IMG/VR virus record: IMGVR_UViG_3300033489_000003 | Location: 32,001 to 96,000 of that record | Reading direction: 5' to 3' (one strand) | Length of the DNA stretch: 64,000 nt | DNA from: a virus | Part shown: piece by piece, positions 6,288 through 50,118 of the stretch | Position numbering within the stretch: position 1 is the first letter of the stretch | Layout: each line of letters begins with the position of its first letter | Position numbers and translations under genes: made by a program | The notes under the pieces: model-generated | The model's database searches: none | The model's input: the letters and a program-made list of their open reading frames with translations, nothing else | What the model was told of the DNA's origin: nothing

Positions 6288-6770
6288 ATGAATGACCGCA
6301 ACAACACCATTCCGCCTCCGCCCAACCCAGACCGCGAACGCGACACCGACAGGCCCAATGGTTCAGAGCATGCTGCATCGAATGGCGACAGCGTCCGCAT
6401 TGAGGGCGTCCGCATATCGGAGCAGGTCGCGCTTCGACTGGATGTGTTCGATCAAAACCTGAAGGCTCTTCGGGAGGAGTTCGAACGACTCAACAAGCTA
6501 GACGAACTGCACGCGCTGCTTACCAGCGTTCAGGTCGATACGGATTCGGACCGAAAGGTCACGGTGCTGGATGTGCTCTTGGAGATGAACGCGAAGCTTG
6601 TCGCCGTCAAGGCAAACTCGGAAGTAACGCTCGAGCGTCTCAAGCAGTACGTGAACGAAGTCATCCGCGTTCACGACGACAACAAGCGCATAGAGCTAGA
6701 GCTTGCCGAGCATTCCTTGAAGCTCGCGAAGATCGAATCGAAGTTACCGCCGGCCGTGCACAAGCACTGA
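6288..6770 (+). CDS. Coiled-coil hypothetical protein
   Basis: Leu/Glu heptads. Confidence 0.5.
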   Translation: MNDRNNTIPPPPNPDRERDTDRPNGSEHAASNGDSVRIEGVRISEQVALRLDVFDQNLKALREEFERLNKLDELHALLTSVQVDTDSDRKVTVLDVLLEMNAKLVAVKANSEVTLERLKQYVNEVIRVHDDNKRIELELAEHSLKLAKIESKLPPAVHKH

Positions 6771-6790
6771 CGGTCAAAGGGGACAGACCA

Positions 6791-7093
6791 ATGGATCAAC
6801 TCGTCGCGACCCATTGGTGGGTGATGCCTCTTTACCTGTTCGTGTGGAGCTTTGTGCGGCTGCTGAAGGATGACCACGCCGTGCGGTGGTTTCCGTTGCG
6901 GCTCGCGCCCAAGTACCGCGTTTGGGCCGCGCTCGGCATCGGACTCATCGGCGCCGGCATCGACTGGATCGCGTCGACGAACCCGTGGCTCCAAGCGTTC
7001 CTCGGCGGCTCCGCCGCATCTTGCGCGGCCGTCACGACGCAAGCGCTAATTCTCAGCATCACGGGCGGGCGCGAGCTGGGCGAGGCCGTGTGA
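6791..7093 (+). CDS. Holin-like membrane protein
   Basis: 100 aa with about three hydrophobic segments; late-region context. Confidence 0.45.
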   Translation: MDQLVATHWWVMPLYLFVWSFVRLLKDDHAVRWFPLRLAPKYRVWAALGIGLIGAGIDWIASTNPWLQAFLGGSAASCAAVTTQALILSITGGRELGEAV

Positions 7094-7551
7094 ATCGCCC
7101 CACCTACTTTCACGGCGGGCATCCTGGGCTGAAGATCGGCGAGTTCCTGCTGCCATCGGTCGAGACGGGCGTCCGCGGGCTTGACGACTGGTCGGGCTCC
7201 GCCTCCGAAACGATCGGCCGGTTCGTCTACGTCACGACCAACATGCCGGCGGCTCGCCTGTATGCCGCCATGTACCCAGGCAAGAACGGCGGGACCGTCT
7301 ACGAGGTGTTGCCGGAGGGTGAGATCGTCCTGGATAAGGACTGCGATCTAGCTGGCATCTCCTTCTCTTGCCCGAAGGCGCTCATCATCGCCGAGCACAA
7401 GATTTCGTACGCCGCGGTGCAGTGGTTAAGGTCGTCGATGATGCGCGCGTCGTCTGCCATGATGCGATTGGCCGCGATGGCGGAAGTGGCAGCCGAGATT
7501 CACGCGAGCGAGACCACGGCGGCGCCGGGTACTGACGCCGAACCAAAATGA
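7090..7551 (+). CDS. Arr-like (rifampin ADP-ribosyltransferase family) ART
   Basis: GTGA overlap; motifs YFHGG..LKIGEFLLP, VYVTT...A..YA, GTVYEVLPEG resemble the H-Y ART fold of Arr. Confidence 0.65.
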   Translation: MNRPTYFHGGHPGLKIGEFLLPSVETGVRGLDDWSGSASETIGRFVYVTTNMPAARLYAAMYPGKNGGTVYEVLPEGEIVLDKDCDLAGISFSCPKALIIAEHKISYAAVQWLRSSMMRASSAMMRLAAMAEVAAEIHASETTAAPGTDAEPK

Positions 7552-7814: not shown

Positions 7815-8462
7815 ATGAAACGAATCACAATGGCGCTGCCGCTGGCAGCCGCATCGGTACTGGCTTGCTCGCAGGTTTGGGCCGGAGATACGGCTCCCAC
7901 TGGGGAGCTGCATAACGACCTAGGATCGAAGCACTTGGCCGTCATGCTAGCGGCCGTGCTTCTTCCCGTGCTGGTGAAGTTCTTTGGTAACGAAACGGTC
8001 AAGCTGCCGTATTGGGCCGCGAAACTGCGTGTGGCCGCCGTCATCGTTCTTGGCGCACTCGCGACAGTGGCGGACCAGGTTCAAAACGGCGGTGACTTTT
8101 GGGGCGCCGTCACGGCCGCGCTCATCACGACGGCGCCAGCGCTTCTGATCGAGCTACTGCAAAAGTTCGGCGGTGGCGGAGAAGTCGTAGGGCAGACGGC
8201 GAAGAGCGTAAGGCCGCCGATGTTTCCGCCGGCCTTGATGCTGGTGTTGGCGATTGGAGTGATGGGATGCGCGGCGAAGCCGTACATCTGCCCAATCATC
8301 GAGACGGCTGGAGAGTTGTGCAATTTTTTGGTTGTTCGTCTGCCTGACGGGTCGACGGAACAGGTGCCAAAGTCGGCCGTGATCGGCATGGCGATGAGCG
8401 CGCGCGCGGCAAGATTCGAAGCTGCAAAAGCTGGCGCCTCCGACGCTGGCGCCGACCGATGA
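7815..8462 (+). CDS. Multi-TM membrane protein (holin/spanin-like)
   Basis: Signal-like N-terminus, 3-4 TM segments, internal lipobox-like 'GVMGC'. Confidence 0.45.
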   Translation: MKRITMALPLAAASVLACSQVWAGDTAPTGELHNDLGSKHLAVMLAAVLLPVLVKFFGNETVKLPYWAAKLRVAAVIVLGALATVADQVQNGGDFWGAVTAALITTAPALLIELLQKFGGGGEVVGQTAKSVRPPMFPPALMLVLAIGVMGCAAKPYICPIIETAGELCNFLVVRLPDGSTEQVPKSAVIGMAMSARAARFEAAKAGASDAGADR

Positions 8463-8806
8463 GGCTTCGGCTTCTCGTCGTCGCGCTCGTGCTCGTAGCG
8501 TGCAGCAAGCCGACGCCTACGCCAAATCCTGGCCCGGCGCCGCCGTTGCCGCCGCTGCACCCGCCGACCATGGCTTCGTGCGACAACGCGCAAGAGAGGC
8601 TAGCGCTGCTCGATTGTAGACGCGAAGACGGCTCGCCGTGGGCCAGGACGCCTGCGGGCGCACCGTTCGCGGATGCGTGCAAGCGAGCGCTCGCAGATGG
8701 TCGTTCGTGGGGAAGTAATTGCATCGCGCGCATGGCGTCGTGCTCGGAGCTCGATTGCGCGTTCCGTAGCCAGTGCTGCGGGACAGCCGACGGCGGTGCC
8801 GAATGA
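8459..8806 (+). CDS. Cys/Pro-rich lipoprotein (o-spanin-like)
   Basis: Lipobox LVAC, Pro-rich linker, multiple Cys. Confidence 0.55.
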   Translation: MRLRLLVVALVLVACSKPTPTPNPGPAPPLPPLHPPTMASCDNAQERLALLDCRREDGSPWARTPAGAPFADACKRALADGRSWGSNCIARMASCSELDCAFRSQCCGTADGGAE

Positions 8807-9645
8807 CGTTCCTCACGGGCGCACATCCTGACCGCCAAGAGTCGCGCGACCGCGACCGAGTCGACTTCAACTACGCTGCGACCAGCGTACCATCTGCGCT
8901 CGAGACTGAGTCAGACTTCATTCAGCCGATCCGGTGGATCCGAGCGCAGCCAAAGTTCCCCGACTGCGTCGGACAGACGTTCGCCGAGATCGTCGACGCG
9001 CTCGGCTACGATGGCAACCTGCCTGAACCTACGTGGGCGTCCGGCGTGTCGATCTGGCGCGACGCTCGCCGCCGGCAAGGGCTCATCGAGGCAATCGAAA
9101 TCGGGACGCGGCTCGAGTACGCGGTCGACAGCCTCGTGCTGCGCGGCTGGGATCCCTACCGCGAAGGCGAAGACTACGACGATATAGAGGCCGGCAAGGG
9201 CGCCGCGCCAGCTGGCGACGATCTCGCTGACGAGATGTTCGCGGACGACAAGCGGCTTGCAAAGGACATCAAGCGGTACCGCATCCTTGGACTCGGGTCG
9301 GGCGTGCTCGACCAGGTCGACGAAGCACTACGGCGCGGTTGGGGCGTCGGCGTAGGAACCGGGCTATCGGATCTATTCCTGAACTACCAACAGCGAACGC
9401 CAGATCAGCCGGAGCACGTTCTTGGGCTCGACTTCATCGGTGGCACCGAGAACGGTCACGCTCAACGAGTTGCTGGACGCGGCACGTACAACGGACGGCG
9501 CAAGTATCTGCTGCAAAATAGCTGGACCGAAAGCTTCGCCGGATGCCATGCGCCCGACGGCGGCTGGCTTCCTGGATGCGTTTGGGCAGACGAGGCCGTG
9601 ATTGTCGGAGCGCACGACGTGCACGTGCTCGAGATTCGCGTCTGA
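8803..9645 (+). CDS. Papain-like (C1) cysteine peptidase
   Basis: Q..DCVG (catalytic Cys), GHAQ (His), LLQNSW (Asn). Confidence 0.8.
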   Translation: MTFLTGAHPDRQESRDRDRVDFNYAATSVPSALETESDFIQPIRWIRAQPKFPDCVGQTFAEIVDALGYDGNLPEPTWASGVSIWRDARRRQGLIEAIEIGTRLEYAVDSLVLRGWDPYREGEDYDDIEAGKGAAPAGDDLADEMFADDKRLAKDIKRYRILGLGSGVLDQVDEALRRGWGVGVGTGLSDLFLNYQQRTPDQPEHVLGLDFIGGTENGHAQRVAGRGTYNGRRKYLLQNSWTESFAGCHAPDGGWLPGCVWADEAVIVGAHDVHVLEIRV

Positions 9646-16977: not shown

Positions 16978-17202
16978 TCAGCCGCCTTCGCCTTCGGGTG
17001 AGGGCGGCTTTTTTGCGTTTGGTGCTTCGAGTGCTGCGCGCATCATGTCGGCGGCGCCGGCTTGGCCAACGGCCTCGACGTTTCGGATCCACTGCGCGAT
17101 CGCCGTTCGGAAGCGCTCGGTTTCTTCGCGGAGACTGTCGATCTCCGCGCGCAAGTGCGCCGGCCCTTTGCGAAACATCGCGTACCATTCCTCGTCGTTC
17201 AT
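16978..17202 (-). CDS. Small coiled-coil protein
   Basis: ATGA-coupled; last gene of the cas-containing run. Confidence 0.45.
   Translation of the reverse strand: MNDEEWYAMFRKGPAHLRAEIDSLREETERFRTAIAQWIRNVEAVGQAGAADMMRAALEAPNAKKPPSPEGEGG
16980..17014 (+). terminator. Intrinsic terminator (+ strand)
   Basis: AGCCGCCTTCGCC-TTCG-GGTGAGGGCGGCT-TTTTT. Confidence 0.75.
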
Positions 17203-17432: not shown

Positions 17433-18152
17433 TTACCGCAACCGACGCAGCTCGACCGCGTAGTATCGCCGTTCCCACTCCGCCCGCCCATGTCCGTCGC
17501 CGCGCCGCCCGCCTAGCGAAGCAACGCGAATGCGCGTCGCGTCTAGCTGCCCACCGAGCGAGCACGCGTAGGCCGGATGGATCGGCAGGTCGTGCTCGAC
17601 GAGATACGCGAACACGTCGAGCCCGGACCACCACCCGATGGGCGCGCACGTGGACGCGCTGGACTCGCCGTATGCGCGCATCCGCGCCTTGCGTTGCCCG
17701 CTCTCGTCGGCGCGTACGCCGCTCACGTGAGCAGCGCCGAAGCGTTGCGCCGCTTCAGCGAAGCCACGCTCAAGCGTGCCCGTAGCATGCCAGCCGTCTT
17801 CGTCGCGGATGCACTGGCTCACGATCTCGTGATAGTTTGAGCTCGGGTACGTTTGAAAAAAAGCGTCTCGCACGAGCGAGCAATCAGGGTTGCAGATAGG
17901 CTCAACGCGGATCCAAACGACAGGCACCTCCGCCGCAAGCCCGGACACCATGTGAGCGATCACGACCGAGTCCTTCCCCCAACTGACACCCGCGTAGCAT
18001 CGCGTCCTAGCTACGAATTCGGCGACAGCCGCGCGCGCCCTATCTACGTGACGACGGTAGAGCGACAACGACGCGTGGGCTCGCGCTGTCCTCTCAACTA
18101 TCTCCCACGCCGCAAGGTCATCTGGCGTGTGCCGCGGTGACGCAATCAGCAC
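17433..18152 (-). CDS. CysH/PAPS-reductase-like protein of a type IV-B locus
   Basis: PP-loop VSWGKDS; GVRADES..R; PIGWW...DVFAYL....LPIHPAY. Confidence 0.85.
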   Translation of the reverse strand: MLIASPRHTPDDLAAWEIVERTARAHASLSLYRRHVDRARAAVAEFVARTRCYAGVSWGKDSVVIAHMVSGLAAEVPVVWIRVEPICNPDCSLVRDAFFQTYPSSNYHEIVSQCIRDEDGWHATGTLERGFAEAAQRFGAAHVSGVRADESGQRKARMRAYGESSASTCAPIGWWSGLDVFAYLVEHDLPIHPAYACSLGGQLDATRIRVASLGGRRGDGHGRAEWERRYYAVELRRLR

Positions 18153-18613
18153 GGTCGCCACGCACCGAAAACGCTCTCGGCTAGCCTTTCGTGTTTGCGC
18201 CATTCGCCAAACCCAAACCGCTGCATCTCGTCCCACGTGGCAGATCGTGTCCAGCCTGTGTGAAGTCGATGGGCGGCGACAACGGCGCCTGTCCTATGCG
18301 ACCCTTTCCAACAATGCACGAGCGTTCCACGCACAAGAAGCGATAGCACGTTGAGCGCTGGTAATCCCAGATGCTCATCGATCGGAAATCGAACGTACTC
18401 AACGCCAAGCTTTGCGTAGGTGCTTGAGGCCAGCAGTTGGCGAGGATTGTCTCTGAGGTCGACGACGCGACGGATTGCGTTATGAGTCAATGCCAGCTTC
18501 AATTCTCCGGCGGAATACTTTCCGGATCGGAACAGCCCGCGGTCGAATTCTGCGAACCTGCGCAAGCTCGTCAGCCCGGCACCGCGCAAAGCTGCTCTCG
18601 CGAATGCATCCAA
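18146..18613 (-). CDS. Cys-dependent (CX5R) tyrosine/dual-specificity phosphatase
   Basis: LFRSG, VVDLR, LVHCWKGSHRTG; start uncertain. Confidence 0.85.
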   Translation of the reverse strand: MDAFARAALRGAGLTSLRRFAEFDRGLFRSGKYSAGELKLALTHNAIRRVVDLRDNPRQLLASSTYAKLGVEYVRFPIDEHLGLPALNVLSLLVRGTLVHCWKGSHRTGAVVAAHRLHTGWTRSATWDEMQRFGFGEWRKHERLAESVFGAWRPC

Positions 18614-19218
18614 TACGGAAACGTGATCGTTGCATACGCGAGCGGAGGATCCTCTAAACCTGGCCAGTCCGCCGGCAACGCGCGCAGTGGCTTACCATCT
18701 CGGACGACTGGAAACCCGTCTCCCCACGACTCATACGGGTCCACGGCCCACTCGCGAACCCTTCCGCGCCCGGTTGAACGCTTGTGCCCAAGGTAGCGAA
18801 CGAGAGTGAGCAGATCGCGAATGGCGTCAGCGTCACCCATGGCGAACCACTCAACCTCGTCGCGCTCTGCCCACGCTACTTCGCTCGGCAAGCGGTACGA
18901 CTTCGTTGGCCCTGCCGATAACAGAATCCGTCTGAACTTCGTTGCGCCCATTGCCTGCGCTTCGGCAAGCGGGAACTTGCGGTTGACGTATCGCAGCTCG
19001 TGCTGGTCGAATTTAGGCGTAGCGAACGAGCACAGGTGAAACCTACCGCAGGGCTCCTTCGTAACCGGGATCTCGATGTCGGCGAGTTCGCCGAATCCTG
19101 GCGGTGGCAGTTGATCGCGCTGTGCCACGGCCCACGCGAGCAGACCATCTAGGCGTAACGACCCGTCCCGTAGCGAGATGGGGCCATCTAGCCGCGCCGT
19201 GATTCGAAGCGGAGTCAC
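18571..19218 (-). CDS. csf3: Type IV CRISPR Cas5-family subunit
   Basis: PLRITARL...LDGLLA...GPTKSYRLP...GD...IRDLL....LGHKRSTGRGRV..W. Confidence 0.85.
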   Translation of the reverse strand: MTPLRITARLDGPISLRDGSLRLDGLLAWAVAQRDQLPPPGFGELADIEIPVTKEPCGRFHLCSFATPKFDQHELRYVNRKFPLAEAQAMGATKFRRILLSAGPTKSYRLPSEVAWAERDEVEWFAMGDADAIRDLLTLVRYLGHKRSTGRGRVREWAVDPYESWGDGFPVVRDGKPLRALPADWPGLEDPPLAYATITFPYWMHSREQLCAVPG

Positions 19219-20198
19219 GCATTCACCGTAGCGAGAAACTCTTTGATGCGCGCCGCCCTGGCTTGAACGTGCGACCTGAACATGGTCCCAGTCTTCGCGG
19301 CAAGATCCGTCGTGTCCATGGGGTGTAGCCTATCAGCCGGCGCACTTACGGCAACGCCCTTGGCCATAATGGCGCGGAGTAGCCCATGCCCTGTTCCTCG
19401 CTTTCCGCCGACGCGCGCGTTGGCAAGCATTGCTGCCACCGTAGTGGAGAAAACGTCGACATCGAGATCGTTGTAGAGCGTGGCCTCGACTCCCCAAGAG
19501 AAAAGCGAGCCTGACGCGACGCGTTCGAACGTGCGGGGCAACATCGTACTCTTCGTTGCCTCCCGCGCCGTTGCGATGTCGGTATCGTGCGCGGCTTCGC
19601 TCTGCAAGAGTCGGTTCTCCGCATCGGAAGCGGCGCCAGCAGATAGGAGCTTACGCTTGCCTGGGTCGAGCGTTGGGTCCATGCGCACGCGCTGCTCTAG
19701 TTCCATGTGCGCGCGTGACGTGTCGAACTGACCTACGTGATCAACGATCCACTTTGGCAAAAGGTGCTTTGACTCCGCGCAAACCAGCAACGCGTCCTCC
19801 ACGACGAGTCGCCCAGGGATGACGCGATTGCCTGCGCACCCGCCCAGCAGCGACAGGGACGGCACGAGATCACACATCTCTCGATAGGTGTCGAGTTTGA
19901 TGGTGCTGGCGTCACCACGTCCAGTGATCATTCCGCCAGCAAAGAGAAGGCGGAGAGCGGCCTCCGACAGCGACGGGTCGGCCAGCAGCCCAGCGGCGTC
20001 GAGAAACGCGTACGCGATGGCCTCACGGCAAGCGTGGCGCATCGTGTCCGACGTCACGCACGCCACTTGCGCCCACGCACCATCAGGCATGCGGATCTTG
20101 CGACGGAACGCGACGGCGCTGTTCCCGTGCACTTCAGAGTGGTGCGCTATTGGCGTTGCCGCCTCCAGCAAAAACTCAAACCGTTTGATCTCGTGCAT
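19215..20198 (-). CDS. csf2: Type IV CRISPR Cas7-family backbone
   Basis: TPIAH, DTMRH, LLFAGG, LSLLGG, G-rich loop VGGKRGTGHG. Confidence 0.88.
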   Translation of the reverse strand: MHEIKRFEFLLEAATPIAHHSEVHGNSAVAFRRKIRMPDGAWAQVACVTSDTMRHACREAIAYAFLDAAGLLADPSLSEAALRLLFAGGMITGRGDASTIKLDTYREMCDLVPSLSLLGGCAGNRVIPGRLVVEDALLVCAESKHLLPKWIVDHVGQFDTSRAHMELEQRVRMDPTLDPGKRKLLSAGAASDAENRLLQSEAAHDTDIATAREATKSTMLPRTFERVASGSLFSWGVEATLYNDLDVDVFSTTVAAMLANARVGGKRGTGHGLLRAIMAKGVAVSAPADRLHPMDTTDLAAKTGTMFRSHVQARAARIKEFLATVNA

Positions 20199-20559
20199 CT
20201 CTAGCCTCCTTACGTTCTTCGGCAATCTTTCTAGTCAAAACCAACAGGAACGCGTATTCCCGCTCGATAAGGTCCAGCCACTCACTTGCGCACCCGCGCT
20301 CGTGCACGAGGTGCGTCAGTTGGAGTAATGATGTCGAATAGCGAACACTGGGCGCCGACAGTTGGAGCTGTCTTGCGATCATCGTCGCCCACTCCTCCGG
20401 ACCCGACGACATCCGCGCCGCCGCTCTCATTCTGTCCTGCAACTGCTCCCAATGTTTCAGCACGTTCACGTGCGGCGTCGACAGGTATGCCGCTCGGATC
20501 TCGAGCAGCACGTCTACCGTCGCGCTTCGGAGTTGCTCCTTCACCTTTTCTTCTATCAC
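20176..20559 (-). CDS. cas11: Cas11-like small subunit
   Basis: GTG with RBS GGAGG; helical 127 aa with HWEQL..RMRAA; lies between csf1 and csf2. Confidence 0.7.
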   Translation of the reverse strand: MIEEKVKEQLRSATVDVLLEIRAAYLSTPHVNVLKHWEQLQDRMRAAARMSSGPEEWATMIARQLQLSAPSVRYSTSLLQLTHLVHERGCASEWLDLIEREYAFLLVLTRKIAEERKEARDARDQTV

Positions 20560-21289
20560 GCTGAGCCTCCTTCTTTGCGGCCCGCGCCGCCTTCTCTTCT
20601 TCCATTCGTTTGGCGACCGTTTCTTCATCTCGTTGCGCCAGCCATAGCGCGAGCGCGAACCACGGCGAGCGGCGCTTGTCCGACCAGTTCTCCTCGAAAC
20701 GGCGAATCTCTTCGGCGCACCGTTGGTATGAGCCCTGTCCGTACTCACCGCGCTCCACTTCTTCTTTCGTCGCGCCAGCCGTAAGCAACGTCGTCATTCG
20801 ATCGACAAGCGTCCACCCGGACGCATGATCGATCGGAATCGTTACGAGCGTCTCCTCGAACATGATGGCGCCTCGCCGTGTATTTGGCGGGTTCACTGGC
20901 GTCCAAGGAATCACGTGTTTTTGGCCGCTGTCAGCAATAGCTGCGAACCACGGCCCCTCTTTCGGCGCACGCAGCCACGCGCGCATCTCCGGCTTGTTTC
21001 CCTTGTTGAACTTGAGCACGCATCGATCATCTACGAGCCACGAATACATGCGCATCGTATCCGGCGGTCGGCCGGCCATCACGTGGACGCATGAAGCGCA
21101 AACATGTGCGCTGGACGGCGACCGAACGCGTGACTGACCGACGAACGTACTGCCTAGCCACCGCTCCACCGGAACACCGAACACGCTCGATCCGGCGCAG
21201 ACCCAGCAATGTTCAGCGGCATGCTCTACAGCGTCGGCGACCTTCGCCCCGCCGAGACGGTCGCTCAAAAGTTGAGAGGCCATCATCAC
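20282..21289 (-). CDS. csf1: Type IV large subunit
   Basis: CWVC...F....P.S..VC.SC Zn finger; P..PWFAAIADSGQKHV.P..PVN. Confidence 0.8.
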   Translation of the reverse strand: MMMASQLLSDRLGGAKVADAVEHAAEHCWVCAGSSVFGVPVERWLGSTFVGQSRVRSPSSAHVCASCVHVMAGRPPDTMRMYSWLVDDRCVLKFNKGNKPEMRAWLRAPKEGPWFAAIADSGQKHVIPWTPVNPPNTRRGAIMFEETLVTIPIDHASGWTLVDRMTTLLTAGATKEEVERGEYGQGSYQRCAEEIRRFEENWSDKRRSPWFALALWLAQRDEETVAKRMEEEKAARAAKKEAQRDRRKGEGATPKRDGRRAARDPSGIPVDAARERAETLGAVAGQNESGGADVVGSGGVGDDDRKTAPTVGAQCSLFDIITPTDAPRARARVRK

Positions 21290-22230
21290 AGCATCATGTC
21301 CGTTATTATGACACGACCGCACCCGAATGCCGTTCTGCCTCCGAATCCAATCCTAGCCGCCGCCTCGAGCAGCCACCGCGAAACCGCGTTCACCTCAAGC
21401 ACGAGCGATCCGCTCCACCCACGCACGGGCCCATACTTACCACCGAATGGTATCGTTTCCGGATGCGTGTCCTGTGACACGATCTCAACGCAGATCCTCT
21501 TGGCGACATAGCGCGCCCACTCCTCTGACGGGGCGAGTCGTCGAACGAACTCAACACCGATCGCGCTTGCTATGTTGACGGCGCCAGGTCGAACGCATTC
21601 CGACGCACCACCGCCCGAGCGAATGACGATCGGAGTGATGGCGTCGAGCCGAACCAGCTGCCGCCCGCGCCTTTGGATCGCAGGTGATCGAAAGCGCCAC
21701 GCCGGTCCAAACGTTAGCGTAGTCGGCCGGTCGAACAACGGAACGTGTACCGACTTTCCTGCTAGCTTCATTCCTTCCTGTCTGAACCAGTGTACTCCCC
21801 ATCCGGATCCATGCGGGACGAGAGAGAAGTTTGGAATACGCGGCACGTGGCCGGCGCCGAGTACAGCCGTAAGCGCGCCATGAAGAGCGGGCGAGTTTCT
21901 TAGTTCGATGGGCCAACGCGGCAACGGTGAATAGTGCACCGTCATGGCGCATCCCGGAAGGTGGACATGGTATGGAGGAGCGCCGGCAAGCCAATGGTTT
22001 TGGCGCGTGCAGTTTCTGTTCCTCCTCGCCCACGCTTCGCACCGAAGCCTTACGGCAAGCGTTTCGCCAATCGGTCGGCGTCGCTCTCTAGTCTGTTCGC
22101 GAGCGCTGTCTAGCGTGCGTTTGCGTTTGCTCCTACAGGCTTCAGAGCACGTCGCCGCGTTCGCGCACAGTTTCCGGAACGTTGACCCGCATTGAACGCA
22201 CCAAGCTTGCCTTATTGAGGACAACGGCAT
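21286..22230 (-). CDS. cas6: Cas6-family RAMP endoribonuclease with N-terminal Zn finger
   Basis: C-terminal G-loop IGFGGRTAFGCGRV; ITPIVIR; N-terminal CVQC...CSEAC. Confidence 0.75.
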   Translation of the reverse strand: MPLSSIRQAWCVQCGSTFRKLCANAATCSEACRSKRKRTLDSAREQTRERRRPIGETLAVRLRCEAWARRNRNCTRQNHWLAGAPPYHVHLPGCAMTVHYSPLPRWPIELRNSPALHGALTAVLGAGHVPRIPNFSLVPHGSGWGVHWFRQEGMKLAGKSVHVPLFDRPTTLTFGPAWRFRSPAIQRRGRQLVRLDAITPIVIRSGGGASECVRPGAVNIASAIGVEFVRRLAPSEEWARYVAKRICVEIVSQDTHPETIPFGGKYGPVRGWSGSLVLEVNAVSRWLLEAAARIGFGGRTAFGCGRVIITDMML

Positions 22231-22232
22231 TG

Positions 22233-22544
22233 CTACTCTCTCCTCCTGTAACGCTCAACACATCTAACGCAGCTCGGCACGTTGGCGCTCGTCACCGTGT
22301 GCGCCGGCTTGCTGCAAAAATAGCATTCGAAGATTCCACGCTGCTTACGTGTGCCGTCGAGTTGTTCGCCAGTCTCCGGCTTGCGCCGCGGCGTCGCAGC
22401 TTGCTGCGTGATTGACACCGGTTCGTTGGCGTTATCCCAAACGAGCATGCCCACCGGAAACATCACCCCGACCTCCCGCATGTCGGACACCGCGCGATCA
22501 ATCCCATCAGCCGCGCGTGCGTTTTGCACGGAACGCGCGGTTGC
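22233..22544 (-). pseudogene. 3' part of a gene apparently split by the TnpB element
   Basis: Frame is open exactly from the element right-end junction (ATARSVQNARA...); C-terminal CxxC..CxxC. Confidence 0.45.
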
Positions 22545-23751
22545 GTGACAACTCCTTCACGAAGCATTGTCTGCCTCGCTACGGCTTCTCGGTTCAACGA
22601 GGCGCTTACAGCTCGCCCCTCCCCGATCGCGGTGCCCCCGCGATTGTACGTTCTTGGCAGCGTTGACGTCGCGGTCCAGTACGAGTCCGCAATGCGGACA
22701 GTCGTGGACGCGAACGCTTAGGCTCTTGCGAACCGTAGCGCCGCAACCGCTGCATTCTTGTGATGTGCCGCGTGGTTCCACCTTGATGAACTCGCGTCCG
22801 GCGCTTTCAGCCTTGTACGCGAGAATCCTGATGAATTGTGCCCATCCGGCGTCGTGAACTTGTTTGGCTAGGCGCATCTGCGCCAAACCTTTGATGCTGA
22901 GATTTTCGACGGCGACCGAATCGAAACGGGCGACGATGCCGCGCGCCGCCTTGTGGTGGAAGTCGAGCCGAGCTCGCCTGACGCGGTCGTGTTGCTTCGC
23001 TAGCAACACAACCGCTTTGCGACGCCGACGCGAACCGCGTTTGCGGCGAGTGACCTTACGGTCAGCCGTTTTGAGCAATTGTAACGCGGACTCGTAGCGC
23101 CTTGGATTCTCAACAGTCTCGCCGGTGCTCAGAGCGGCGAAAGTGGTGACGCCAACGTCGATGCCAACGCTGGCGCCTGTTGCCGTTAGATGTTCGACGC
23201 GGACGTTGTCGCACACGAAAGTCACATACCAGTGGCCGTCTCCGGCGAGCGTGACGCGGACTTGCTTGACCGTGCCTACGATCGGGCGATGCAGCTTAAC
23301 CTTGACCTTGCCGATGCAAGACAGTTCCACCTTGGTTCCGCCAGCAACAAGGCGAGCGCCGTTGCGATTTATCGCGTCACGGAACGTGAAAGTGCGGTAG
23401 CGCCCACGCCCCTTGAACCGTGGAAACCCAGGAGTCTCGCCGGCCTTGCAGCGACGGAAGAACGCACGGTAGGCGCGGTCGAGACGCGTGATAGCGTCCT
23501 GGAGCAGGTGGACGTGAATGCCAGTGTACTCTGGCCGTACAACGCGAACTTCCTTCAGCTCAAGCTGCTGTTGGTACTCGGAAATGGATCGCCCCTGCTT
23601 CTTGTAAGCGTCTCTTCGCTCCTGTAGAGCAGCGTTGTATAGTTCACACAGTAGGCGCATCGTTTCTCGCAAGCGCGCCTCTTGGGCCCGCGTAGGATAG
23701 ATACGATAGCGATAGGCGCGGATCACAGCGCCATCCTTGACTCTACTCATT
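22545..23751 (-). mobile_element. IS200/IS605-family (IS1341-like) tnpB-only element
   Basis: Right end ...GAAGCC...hairpin CGAGGCA-GACAA-TGCTTCG...GGAGTTGTCAC; no tnpA; left boundary inferred. Confidence 0.65.
22557..23750 (-). CDS. tnpB: RNA-guided endonuclease TnpB
   Basis: AYRYRIYPT; RuvC GIDVG / VAVENL / DRDVNAA (D-E-D intact); TSQECSGC..CPHC. Confidence 0.95.
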   Translation of the reverse strand: MSRVKDGAVIRAYRYRIYPTRAQEARLRETMRLLCELYNAALQERRDAYKKQGRSISEYQQQLELKEVRVVRPEYTGIHVHLLQDAITRLDRAYRAFFRRCKAGETPGFPRFKGRGRYRTFTFRDAINRNGARLVAGGTKVELSCIGKVKVKLHRPIVGTVKQVRVTLAGDGHWYVTFVCDNVRVEHLTATGASVGIDVGVTTFAALSTGETVENPRRYESALQLLKTADRKVTRRKRGSRRRRKAVVLLAKQHDRVRRARLDFHHKAARGIVARFDSVAVENLSIKGLAQMRLAKQVHDAGWAQFIRILAYKAESAGREFIKVEPRGTSQECSGCGATVRKSLSVRVHDCPHCGLVLDRDVNAAKNVQSRGHRDRGGASCKRLVEPRSRSEADNAS

Positions 23752-48591: not shown

Positions 48592-50118
48592 ATGAGCGAC
48601 GAAAAGTACGGGGCGATGCGCGGCTTTCAGGAGTCGCTCTATTCGTTGGCTGTCGACATTGTCGACGGCAGACGTACTGAGCGAACCTTCGTTTTGAGCG
48701 CTACGCCTGGCGGCGGGAAGACGCGGGCCTATTCGATCTTTGCCCACGAACTGCTCGAGGCCGGCATTGTTCAGAAAGTTCTCATCGTTGTGCCGCGCGA
48801 CTCGCTTCGCTCGCAAGTGCGAGAGGGTTTTACGGATGGGCAATACCTTTTCCGCGCGATCATAGACGACCCGAAGCAAATCAAGTCTGGCCAGGAGAGC
48901 ATCCTTGCCCGTTCTGGATGGGTCACTACGTACCAAGCAATCGCCGCAGCGCCGAAGCGGTGGCAACGTCTTGTTGCGGACTTCAGGCTTCTTCTTGTTC
49001 TGGATGAAGGACATCACCTGTCCGAGCGCCCGACCGATGATCCCGAGATCGCGGAGGGCGCCGCTTGGTGGCAAAGCCTTAAACCGATCGCCGATGTGGC
49101 TGAAAAGATTTTAGTCGGCAGCGGCACGCTTTGGCGTGAGCGTGGCCAAAAGATTCCGTTGGTCCCGTACCGAGAAGACGGTTCTCTCGTTGCCGACGTG
49201 ACCTACACGCGACGAGAGGCGCTTGCTGAAAAGGCCATTCTGCCTATCAACTTCAAACGCATCGACGGCCGCGCGATCTACGCCTCCAAGGGCAACGTCA
49301 AAAACGTCACGCTGTCGAGCGCCAAGAAGTCGGAAAACGCGAAGGCTCTCAAGACGCTTCTTCTGTCGCCCAACTATCGCGACGACGTTCTGGGCAGGCT
49401 TTCCGAGTGGGCGACGTATCGCCGGACGACCTATCCGTCCCGCGCGATCGTTGTCACGCATAGTCAATCGGCGGCGCGGTCAATCGCCGACATTGTCGGC
49501 AAACAGCTAGGCGTCAAGGTAGCTCTTGCCATAAGCGATGATGCGGCCAGTAAACGCCATCTGAAGGCGTTTCGTCGAGACCGGGTTGGCGATGTTCTCG
49601 TTACGGTTGGCATGGCCCACGAAGGGCTGGACGTGCCGGATTGCACGCATCTCATCTGCTTGACCGATGTCCGTTCTCCTGGATGGCTAGAGCAGATGTT
49701 CGGACGCGTGACGCGCTTCGATCCTTCCTGCGGTCTTACGTGGGAGCAGCAATGCGCGTACATCTATGTGCCAGATGATCCGCCGATGCGTGCGGTCATA
49801 GATGGCCTATTGGCCGAACAGCATCTTGCTTGGGAGGAGATGGCGCGCGGCAAGCCGAAAGGCATTCGCGTTCACCCGTTGGCCACCTTCCGACCGCTTG
49901 AAGGGTCGGCTGGAGAGACGCGCTACTCGTCCGTTGACGGCAATTTCACCGATGAGCAGTCGCGGCTGATCATGCGCACGCTGAAGACGTGGCCAGAACT
50001 GGAAGTGCTCCCGTGGCACAAGGTGCTTGAGATTGGCACCCACACGGACTGGAACACGTTCAACGGACAAGGCCACGGCGGGGTCGGTTCGGCGGAGGCG
50101 ACTGGCGATGCGAGCTGA
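48592..50118 (+). CDS. SF2 DEAD/DEAH-box helicase
   Basis: TPGGGKT, DEGHH, SGT, EGLDVP, QMFGRVTR. Confidence 0.9.
   Translation: MSDEKYGAMRGFQESLYSLAVDIVDGRRTERTFVLSATPGGGKTRAYSIFAHELLEAGIVQKVLIVVPRDSLRSQVREGFTDGQYLFRAIIDDPKQIKSGQESILARSGWVTTYQAIAAAPKRWQRLVADFRLLLVLDEGHHLSERPTDDPEIAEGAAWWQSLKPIADVAEKILVGSGTLWRERGQKIPLVPYREDGSLVADVTYTRREALAEKAILPINFKRIDGRAIYASKGNVKNVTLSSAKKSENAKALKTLLLSPNYRDDVLGRLSEWATYRRTTYPSRAIVVTHSQSAARSIADIVGKQLGVKVALAISDDAASKRHLKAFRRDRVGDVLVTVGMAHEGLDVPDCTHLICLTDVRSPGWLEQMFGRVTRFDPSCGLTWEQQCAYIYVPDDPPMRAVIDGLLAEQHLAWEEMARGKPKGIRVHPLATFRPLEGSAGETRYSSVDGNFTDEQSRLIMRTLKTWPELEVLPWHKVLEIGTHTDWNTFNGQGHGGVGSAEATGDAS

Follow-up and report, generated by a model that had tools for sequence, protein, structure and literature searches.

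A divergent subtype IV-B CRISPR module with Cas6, a phosphatase and a clamp-binding-like Csf1 tail in a temperate soil phage

The 64,000-nucleotide stretch of DNA analysed here (the window) comprises bases 32001-96000 of the virus record IMGVR_UViG_3300033489_000003, a 104,643-bp IMG/VR genome that is complete according to CheckV. At window positions 17433-22230 it carries a minus-strand operon that had been predicted, from the letters alone, to be an array-less type IV-B-like CRISPR module that carries Cas6 and a phosphatase in addition, and this description was upheld by the gene families, the Csf2 profile and the fold of the Cas6 protein. The seven genes lie in the predicted coupled order, cas6-csf1-cas11-csf2-csf3-CX5R phosphatase-cysH (Table 1), and all seven open reading frames (ORFs) are intact and coupled, with start/stop overlaps of the GTGA or ATGA type. 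The cas6 stop codon (TGA, 21288-21286) overlaps the candidate csf1 starts (GTG 21289 and ATG 21286), cas11 and csf2 overlap by 23 nt, csf2 and csf3 by 4 nt, and the phosphatase stop overlaps the GTG of cysH. The start of the phosphatase is uncertain (TTG 18613 or a more downstream codon), and the true start of the cysH-like gene is likely GTG 18161 or 18152. The original gene list missed two neighbours, a small Zn-ribbon ORF that is coupled to cas6 and a TnpB gene just upstream.

Table 1. Genes of the operon and its upstream neighbours, in window positions
Feature	Position	Strand	Evidence or remark
cas6 (ZnF-Cas6, zinc-finger Cas6)	21286..22230	-	Pfam Cas6 E=0.006, AlphaFold2 model, Foldseek
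csf1, small Cas8-like subunit	20282..21289	-	TIGR03114 1.3e-13
cas11, small subunit, 127 aa	20176..20559	-	GTG start, AAGGAGG site upstream; inside 3' part of csf1 ORF, other frame
csf2, Cas7 backbone, 327 aa	19215..20198	-	TIGR03115 1.6e-6
csf3, Cas5, 215 aa	18571..19218	-	TIGR03116 3.6e-15
CX5R phosphatase of protein tyrosine phosphatase (PTP) fold	18146..18613	-	PF03162 1.2e-6, motif HCWKGSHRTG
cysH-like (CasCysH), phosphoadenosine phosphosulfate (PAPS)-reductase / ATP pyrophosphatase fold	17433..18236	-	PF01507 1.1e-9, P-loop SWGKDS
Small Zn-ribbon ORF, 76 aa	22463..22233 (feature listed as 22233..22544)	-	stop 2 nt before cas6 ATG
TnpB, IS200/IS605-type RNA-guided nuclease	22557..23750	-	neighbouring insertion

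Judged by its profiles, the module is a distant branch of subtype IV-B. A profile built from 26 Csf2 sequences was searched against the chains of the PDB, and the closest match was the Csf2 of a IV-B complex (7jhy, 7.4e-14), ahead of IV-C Cas7 (2e-8) and IV-A Csf2 (1.4e-4); by this comparison, the protein does not group with an already described Cas6-bearing subtype. It is about 25% identical to the Csf2 of plasmid IV-B systems of Rhodococcus, Gordonia and Mycobacterium and of the Skermania phage SPI1, and its TIGR03115 score lies under the curated cut-off. The TIGR03114 and TIGR03116 scores of Csf1 and Csf3 are also under the equivalog cut-offs, and these proteins are therefore divergent members of their families. 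A conserved, helical cas11-type ORF of 127 codons stands in the expected place in all related loci described below, and the top PDB match of its profile was IV-B Cas11 (7jhy_h), with a weak E value of 0.046. The cysH-like protein has no Cys in its last 40 residues, i.e., it is without the C-terminal catalytic Cys motif of PAPS reductases. Because the Csf2 profile and, weakly, the Cas11 profile are nearest to 7JHY, a CysH-like gene is present and no helicase accompanies the operon, we assigned the module to IV-B; Cas6 makes it a variant and does not exclude it from the subtype, since the literature allows rare exceptions (PMC7038947).

The cas6 product is predicted to be a divergent zinc-finger Cas6 endoribonuclease. 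An N-terminal Zn-ribbon with Arg-rich helices (about residues 1-70) is followed by a Cas6 double-RAMP and a C-terminal G-rich loop (GFGGRTAFGCGR). The Pfam match of the window protein is marginal. The AlphaFold2 model, built on an alignment of 15 homologues from related loci (predicted local distance difference test score, pLDDT, 84; predicted template modelling score 0.75), has a Cas6 RAMP fold. Its best Foldseek match was 6fjw (2.9e-8), the type IV Cas6 6njy scored 3e-7, and among the matches listed, with E values down to about 1e-3, almost all were Cas6 or Cas6e, most of them at probability 1.00. All full-length members of the family keep His117 on helix 1, which we take to be the counterpart of the helix-1 His of catalytic Cas6 proteins, and the loop G-x-G-x5-G-x-G-R does not vary. 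The N-terminal Zn-ribbon and Arg-rich helices are present in about half of the family, including the window copy. The window-type family is restricted to metagenomic contigs, and the close homologue in the related locus L115 carries the NCBI name Cas6.

Megablast of the operon against phage and plasmid collections gave no match, nor did a single-sequence scan of viral contigs recover any relative. Alignment-seeded scans recovered 33 IMG/VR loci, 13 contigs of metagenome-assembled genomes (MAGs) and 118 metagenome loci, of which 80 were kept (more than 120 loci in all), and a protein search returned at least 760 Csf2 homologues. Several of the IMG/VR relatives are complete genomes with terminal repeats, and the taxonomic labels of the MAG contigs are scattered over many phyla, which suggests that these contigs are binned phage DNA. 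All relatives have csf1-cas11-csf2-csf3 in common, and a cysH-like gene, from either of two lineages, accompanies these genes in nearly every case; the module is 45-75% identical across the loci, with invariant catalytic-type and zinc residues. In a quick maximum-likelihood tree of 41 unique viral and MAG Csf2 sequences (midpoint root), a long branch with full support parts the clade from the IV-B systems of the Skermania phage SPI1, Rhodococcus and Rhodovastum. From these sequences, the window locus is no one-off and belongs to a deep, large IV-B clade, borne by phages and metagenomic contigs and previously unrecognised. Its closest relative, L115, has a 74% identical Csf2, and the nucleotide similarity between the two is confined to the stretch from cas6 to the end of csf3; L115 has the other cysH lineage and no phosphatase. 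It follows that the effector core and the accessory enzymes recombine as modules.

Across this clade, Cas6 is a recurrent, swappable and non-orthologously acquired part. A hidden Markov model of the window-type Cas6 matched 23 of the 41 unique viral and MAG loci, and the matching loci are scattered on the Csf2 tree in a way that forces at least six gains or losses. Nor is the slot of the gene fixed: it may precede csf1, follow cysH or stand between csf3 and cysH. Among the loci counted as lacking the window-type protein, some hold other Cas6 families in the same slots, namely Cas6e in L032/G031 and L170 (TIGR01907, 55.5 bits, over the cut-off; PF08798, 1e-21), a Cas6e-like gene in L015/G014 (PF08798, 3e-8) and Cas6/Cmx6 in L034/G033 (TIGR02807, 113.8 bits, over the cut-off). 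The genomes G014 and G033 are complete, have terminal repeats and lack an array. The co-occurrence of cas6 with IV-B genes is thus patchy but frequent, and includes replacement by other families. In two relatives the window-type gene is broken: it is frameshifted in one complete relative, G002 (48748-49721), and contains two in-frame TGA codons in another, G004 (8066-8839), which suggests ongoing loss or sequencing errors.

The absence of an array, Cas1 and CasDinG that had been noted for the window holds for the entire 104.6-kb genome. Tandem Repeats Finder and two k-mer spacing scans, which are able to catch two-repeat mini-arrays, detected no CRISPR array in the window or the whole record, and no pair of repeats of 20 nt or longer at CRISPR spacing exists anywhere in the 104.6 kb. 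Profile searches of the same sequence found neither Cas1 nor CasDinG (cas_csf4); no profile search was made for RecD, and the sole helicase-like ORF seen lies 26 kb from the operon. Among the relatives, 24 genomes scanned whole and about 90 further loci, real arrays were found in two, L004 and L134; 23 of the 24 whole-scanned genomes have no array or repeat and one does. Six or seven 36-nt repeats, each with a GTGATC/GATCAC hairpin, make up the L004 array, which lies right after the IV-B cysH, beside a 665-aa ORF. In L134, one 36-nt repeat brackets the operon (2133-2292 and 6421-7423), with six perfect copies downstream of cysH and, immediately ahead of csf1, two inverted copies that are slightly degenerate. 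Since these two loci have arrays, some members of the clade use guides of their own. No recognisable Cas6 was found in either on the available sequence, and their repeats and spacers have no match in the window phage genome. The 665-aa ORF of L004 (12577-15016) had no Pfam or NCBIfam match and contains fragmentary, co-linear TnpB/Cas12-like motifs (YRY..., LHRPLP, ALDIG) with the RuvC-II Glu apparently replaced. The similarity was too faint and fragmentary to call it TnpB/Cas12-like; its position with an array beside IV-B genes recalls the pairing of IV-B with an inactivated Cas12b3 (PMC12669027).

In type I systems, Cas6e and Cmx6 process RNA in a repeat-specific manner. Their recruitment into IV-B operons of array-less phages is the best evidence obtained here on the nature of the cargo, and from it we infer that the complexes would need processed, repeat-bearing RNA from elsewhere; host arrays would be the obvious source of such RNA supplied in trans. 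The original prediction had reasoned that retention of Cas6 implies a defined hairpin substrate. The wide occurrence of Cas6 and its replacement by Cas6e and Cas6/Cmx6 in array-less complete genomes strengthen this reasoning, and the substrate itself was not found. Rfam searches on 15-26 kb of the window gave chance-level matches only, and patterns of I-E-type hairpins had one chance-level match in each of the Cas6e-bearing genomes.

The second conserved feature of the clade is the C-terminus of Csf1. In the window, the csf1 frame stays open to 20282, i.e., 278 nt into cas11, which is read in a different frame and is favoured there by the G+C content at third codon positions. About 37 of 44 loci have a csf1 frame that continues without a stop for 224-374 nt into cas11, always with an unchanged frame offset; the overlap usually amounts to about 225-310 nt, reaches 374 nt in one locus, and is kept across sequences that are 35-50% identical. 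Because the overlap recurs in so many loci at a constant offset, it is not an assembly error, and a rough estimate from base composition puts the chance of 80 open codons at about 0.04-0.07 per locus. The last ~90 residues of Csf1 therefore form a low-complexity tail encoded in the second frame of cas11, and this tail ends in a short peptide, QCSLF in the window and QLxLF as the family consensus (QLSLF, QLGLF, QLDLF, QLALF, QGSLF, or QxxLPG[FIL]). Q325 and L328 are invariant in 22 Csf1 sequences, on a par with the four invariant Cys that are the zinc ligands of Csf1 (C39, C42, C75 and C78), and a Q-x-x-[LIM]-[FWP] peptide occurs in 55 of the 66 metagenome loci with csf1, against a rough chance rate of ~3% per tail. 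In Cas11, the nucleotides that code for the peptide read as a Ser-rich stretch. From these patterns, selection in the overlap seems to act on the Csf1 frame, and the overprinting of the csf1 tail on cas11 in another frame is an unusual instance of gene overlap within a CRISPR operon, and a well-conserved one.

The peptide resembles those by which proteins bind the bacterial beta sliding clamp, such as QLGLF in Pol II, QLNLF in UmuC and QLSLPL in Hda. The clamp-binding consensus, said to have been described by Dalrymple in 2001, is reportedly QL[SD]LF, with a Hda-type form QLxLPL, and we take the QLxLF peptide of Csf1 to be a match to it. In clamp-binding proteins, such a short peptide sits close to the C-terminus within a disordered tail, as it does in Csf1. 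A complex of the Csf1 tail (residues 285-346, with a 22-row alignment) and the E. coli beta clamp was predicted with ESMFold2; the clamp was a stand-in from another host, the window phage encoding no DnaN. The prediction scored 0.60, compared with 0.01 for the best control, the runs agreed in at least 68% of the contacts, and the pLDDT of the partner was about 41. Of 80 solved complexes, 58 attained the mark set for such predictions, as did 2 of 110 mismatched pairs; scores no higher than 0.60 came from only seven of the 80 solved complexes and from both passing mismatches. This result was judged as weak support, and since clamp-peptide complexes have already been solved, the pass may reflect likeness only. 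The Csf1 tail may dock the complex on the clamp of the replisome, and the conserved peptide suggests that the complex acts at the replication fork. No paper linking a CRISPR effector with the beta clamp was found in the literature searched. In the canonical IV-B locus of the Rhodovastum atsumiense plasmid RHOApd (L133:4444-4914), it is Cas11, not Csf1, that ends in a clamp-binding-like sequence (...EFQLELFEAA).

Homologues of the phosphatase adjoin a cysH of lineage A in five loci, the window and four others, in two gene orders: csf3-PTP-cysH in L182, whose phosphatase is 61% identical to the window protein, and cysH-PTP in L143, L034/G033 and G002. The recurrence of this pairing suggests that the phosphatase and the CysH-like enzyme act in a shared pathway, and the attachment of the phosphatase to one CysH-like lineage narrows the chemistry. 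In L034 (13221-13913), directly after the cysH-like gene, the PTP domain is fused to a region with a weak likeness to SpoU RNA 2'-O-methyltransferases (E=0.0013).

Our preferred reading, to which we give an even chance of being right, is that the operon encodes a working phage IV-B module that obtains its RNA in trans through Cas6, docks on the clamp and acts through the chemistry of the CysH-like enzyme and the phosphatase. Cas6 would cut a repeat-type hairpin RNA that is not encoded by the phage, most plausibly host pre-CRISPR RNA, and Csf2, Cas11, Csf3 and Csf1 would assemble on the product. Through the Csf1 tail, this complex would be held on the beta sliding clamp of the host at the replication fork. 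The CysH-like enzyme, aided by the phosphatase, would act either on a nucleotide or on the nucleic acid that is bound. The phage might benefit by reusing host guides against competing elements or by removing them from host defence. A fully specified form, in which a phage Cas6 suited to the repeat type of the host cuts host pre-crRNA, the Csf complex loaded with the product rides the clamp, and the CysH-like enzyme and phosphatase chemically mark or block DNA or RNA to which host spacers match, is unlikely as a whole; if true, such hijacking would turn host immune memory to phage use, for example to exclude rival phages or plasmids.

Several observations weigh against the preferred reading. 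The flanks of the operon are without meaningful repeats, the 230 nt after cysH fold worse than shuffled sequences (z +2.1), and no non-coding sequence is conserved between the window locus and L115, so that the search for the RNA substrate came back empty on each of these counts. L004 and L134 have arrays, and the solved IV-B complex bound heterogeneous RNA and not the co-expressed CRISPR RNA (crRNA) (Zhou et al., PMC7937560). About one third of the well-covered loci have no recognisable Cas6 of any kind, which makes Cas6 dispensable. As to the clamp, the window copy of the peptide, QCSLF, departs from the consensus at position 2, and loci with a short overlap (L002, L006, the L010 group and L034) are without the motif.

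One rival reading is a guide-independent machine, which we consider somewhat unlikely. Csf2 and Cas11 would coat heterogeneous RNA, as in the Mycobacterium complex of Zhou et al., Cas6 would be a structural cap or an occasional add-on, and the real activity would be that of the CysH-like enzyme and the phosphatase, which would modify nucleotides or nucleic acid, perhaps at the replication fork. The lack of an array or repeat in the window genome and in nearly all whole-scanned relatives would then be expected, as would the many loci without Cas6 and the constancy of the core while the accessory enzymes vary (two cysH lineages, phosphatase). However, the repeated swaps to the repeat-specific Cas6e and Cmx6 are hard to explain without sequence-specific RNA processing, and neither the conserved catalytic-type His and G-rich loop of Cas6 nor the two relatives with real arrays fit such a machine. 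An anti-CRISPR sponge is distinctly unlikely. Here Cas6 and the Csf proteins would withhold host crRNAs from the host Cascade or Csm with no downstream targeting, which agrees with the type I-derived Cas6 genes in array-less phages and with the negative correlation of IV-B with host CRISPR systems (Pinilla-Redondo et al., PMC7038947). The near-universal CysH-like gene, the phosphatase and the conserved clamp-like tail of Csf1 would be left unexplained by it, and the same authors judged an anti-CRISPR of such complexity unlikely (PMC7038947).

It is quite improbable that the phage provides a non-array guide of its own, encoded in another part of its genome as a lone repeat unit or a structured transcript. 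The inverted repeat copies that L134 has directly upstream of csf1, besides its array, would suit this idea, as would the two-repeat mini-array of the Fuxiviridae IV-B (PMC10541130). One candidate is an unexplained array of 5-nt periodicity, (GGYNN)n, of ~450 nt at genome bases 2060-2510 (L128) near the left genome end, after a RAMP-like ORF and its partner gene; we rejected it as a partner of csf, since it does not accompany csf loci in the relatives. The idea also has to contend with the lack of any repeat pair at CRISPR spacing in the genome, which the L004 and L134 repeats do not match either. A decaying, functionless remnant is extremely improbable, because the seven ORFs are intact and coupled and the module is conserved over more than 120 loci with its catalytic-type and zinc residues, in spite of the TnpB insertion that adjoins the operon and the broken cas6 of G002 and G004.

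The function of IV-B and the RNA that it loads have been an open question since the subtype was defined, and its role is still termed unclear in a paper of September 2026 (PMC13676074). The swapping of dedicated Cas6 enzymes in array-less phages argues for a specific, trans-supplied RNA as the cargo. The clade provides three bench handles on IV-B, namely the swapped Cas6, the docking peptide of Csf1 and the cysH-linked phosphatase.

The genome that carries the operon comes from soil metagenomes, and none of the sequencing runs listed for it was of RNA. Large terminase, major head, tail sheath, baseplate hub and wedge, and large serine integrase genes were matched in the record, which therefore represents a temperate, contractile-tailed phage. 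Just upstream of cas6 lies a TnpB-only element (22545-23751), and the small Zn-ribbon ORF next to it seems to represent the 3' part of a gene that this element interrupted, because both halves join in frame; the ORF has no homologue in related loci. TnpB was found in 2 of 34 related records, both times just upstream of cas6, the second copy (L002:1114-2226) being 31% identical and having one in-frame TGA. As a general functional partner TnpB was rejected, since it occurs in only these two records and splits a gene in the window; we take its position to be an insertion hot spot or a coincidence, and it is probably not part of the system. On the other side of the operon, cysH is followed by a 74-aa coiled-coil-like ORF (17202..16981, minus strand) and this in turn by a strong intrinsic terminator of the plus strand (16980-17009; a 13-bp stem followed by TTTTTT), which separates convergent plus-strand genes from the csf operon.

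The closest characterised system is the plasmid IV-B complex of Mycobacterium sp. JS623 (PDB 7JHY; PMC7937560, PMC8175902), which has the five-gene core and the adjacent CysH-like gene in common with the window module and likewise is borne by a mobile element without an array, adaptation genes, helicase or nuclease. Unlike it, the window module has Cas6, the PTP phosphatase, the 278-nt csf1/cas11 overlap and the QLxLF-type end of Csf1; in the IV-B systems of the Skermania phage SPI1 and Rhodovastum, csf1 and cas11 scarcely overlap or are separate. The expectation of a new variant stood in part. The module is a variant, but 12 IV-B loci with Cas6 had already been listed, as a rare exception, by Pinilla-Redondo et al. 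in 2020 (PMC7038947), IV-B is known on viruses (Fuxiviridae; PMC10541130), and a few relatives have arrays. What is new is a large phage clade in which Cas6 is frequent and swapped: the published Cas6-bearing loci have the IV-B core and Cas6 in common with it, whereas here Cas6 is frequent and comes from at least three families, and the Fuxivirus system has a mini-array whereas the window phage genome has none. Type IV-A variants with Cas6e or Cas6f (PMC7038947) similarly combine a type IV effector on a mobile element with a type I-derived Cas6, which implies the use of host-type repeats; cross-talk of IV-A systems with borrowed Cas6 and host I-E or I-F arrays is described (PMC7038947; Benz et al. 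2024, as cited in PMC12669027). Those systems have their own arrays and CasDinG and are without Cas11 and CysH, whereas the window clade combines Cas11 with CysH and generally lacks an array.

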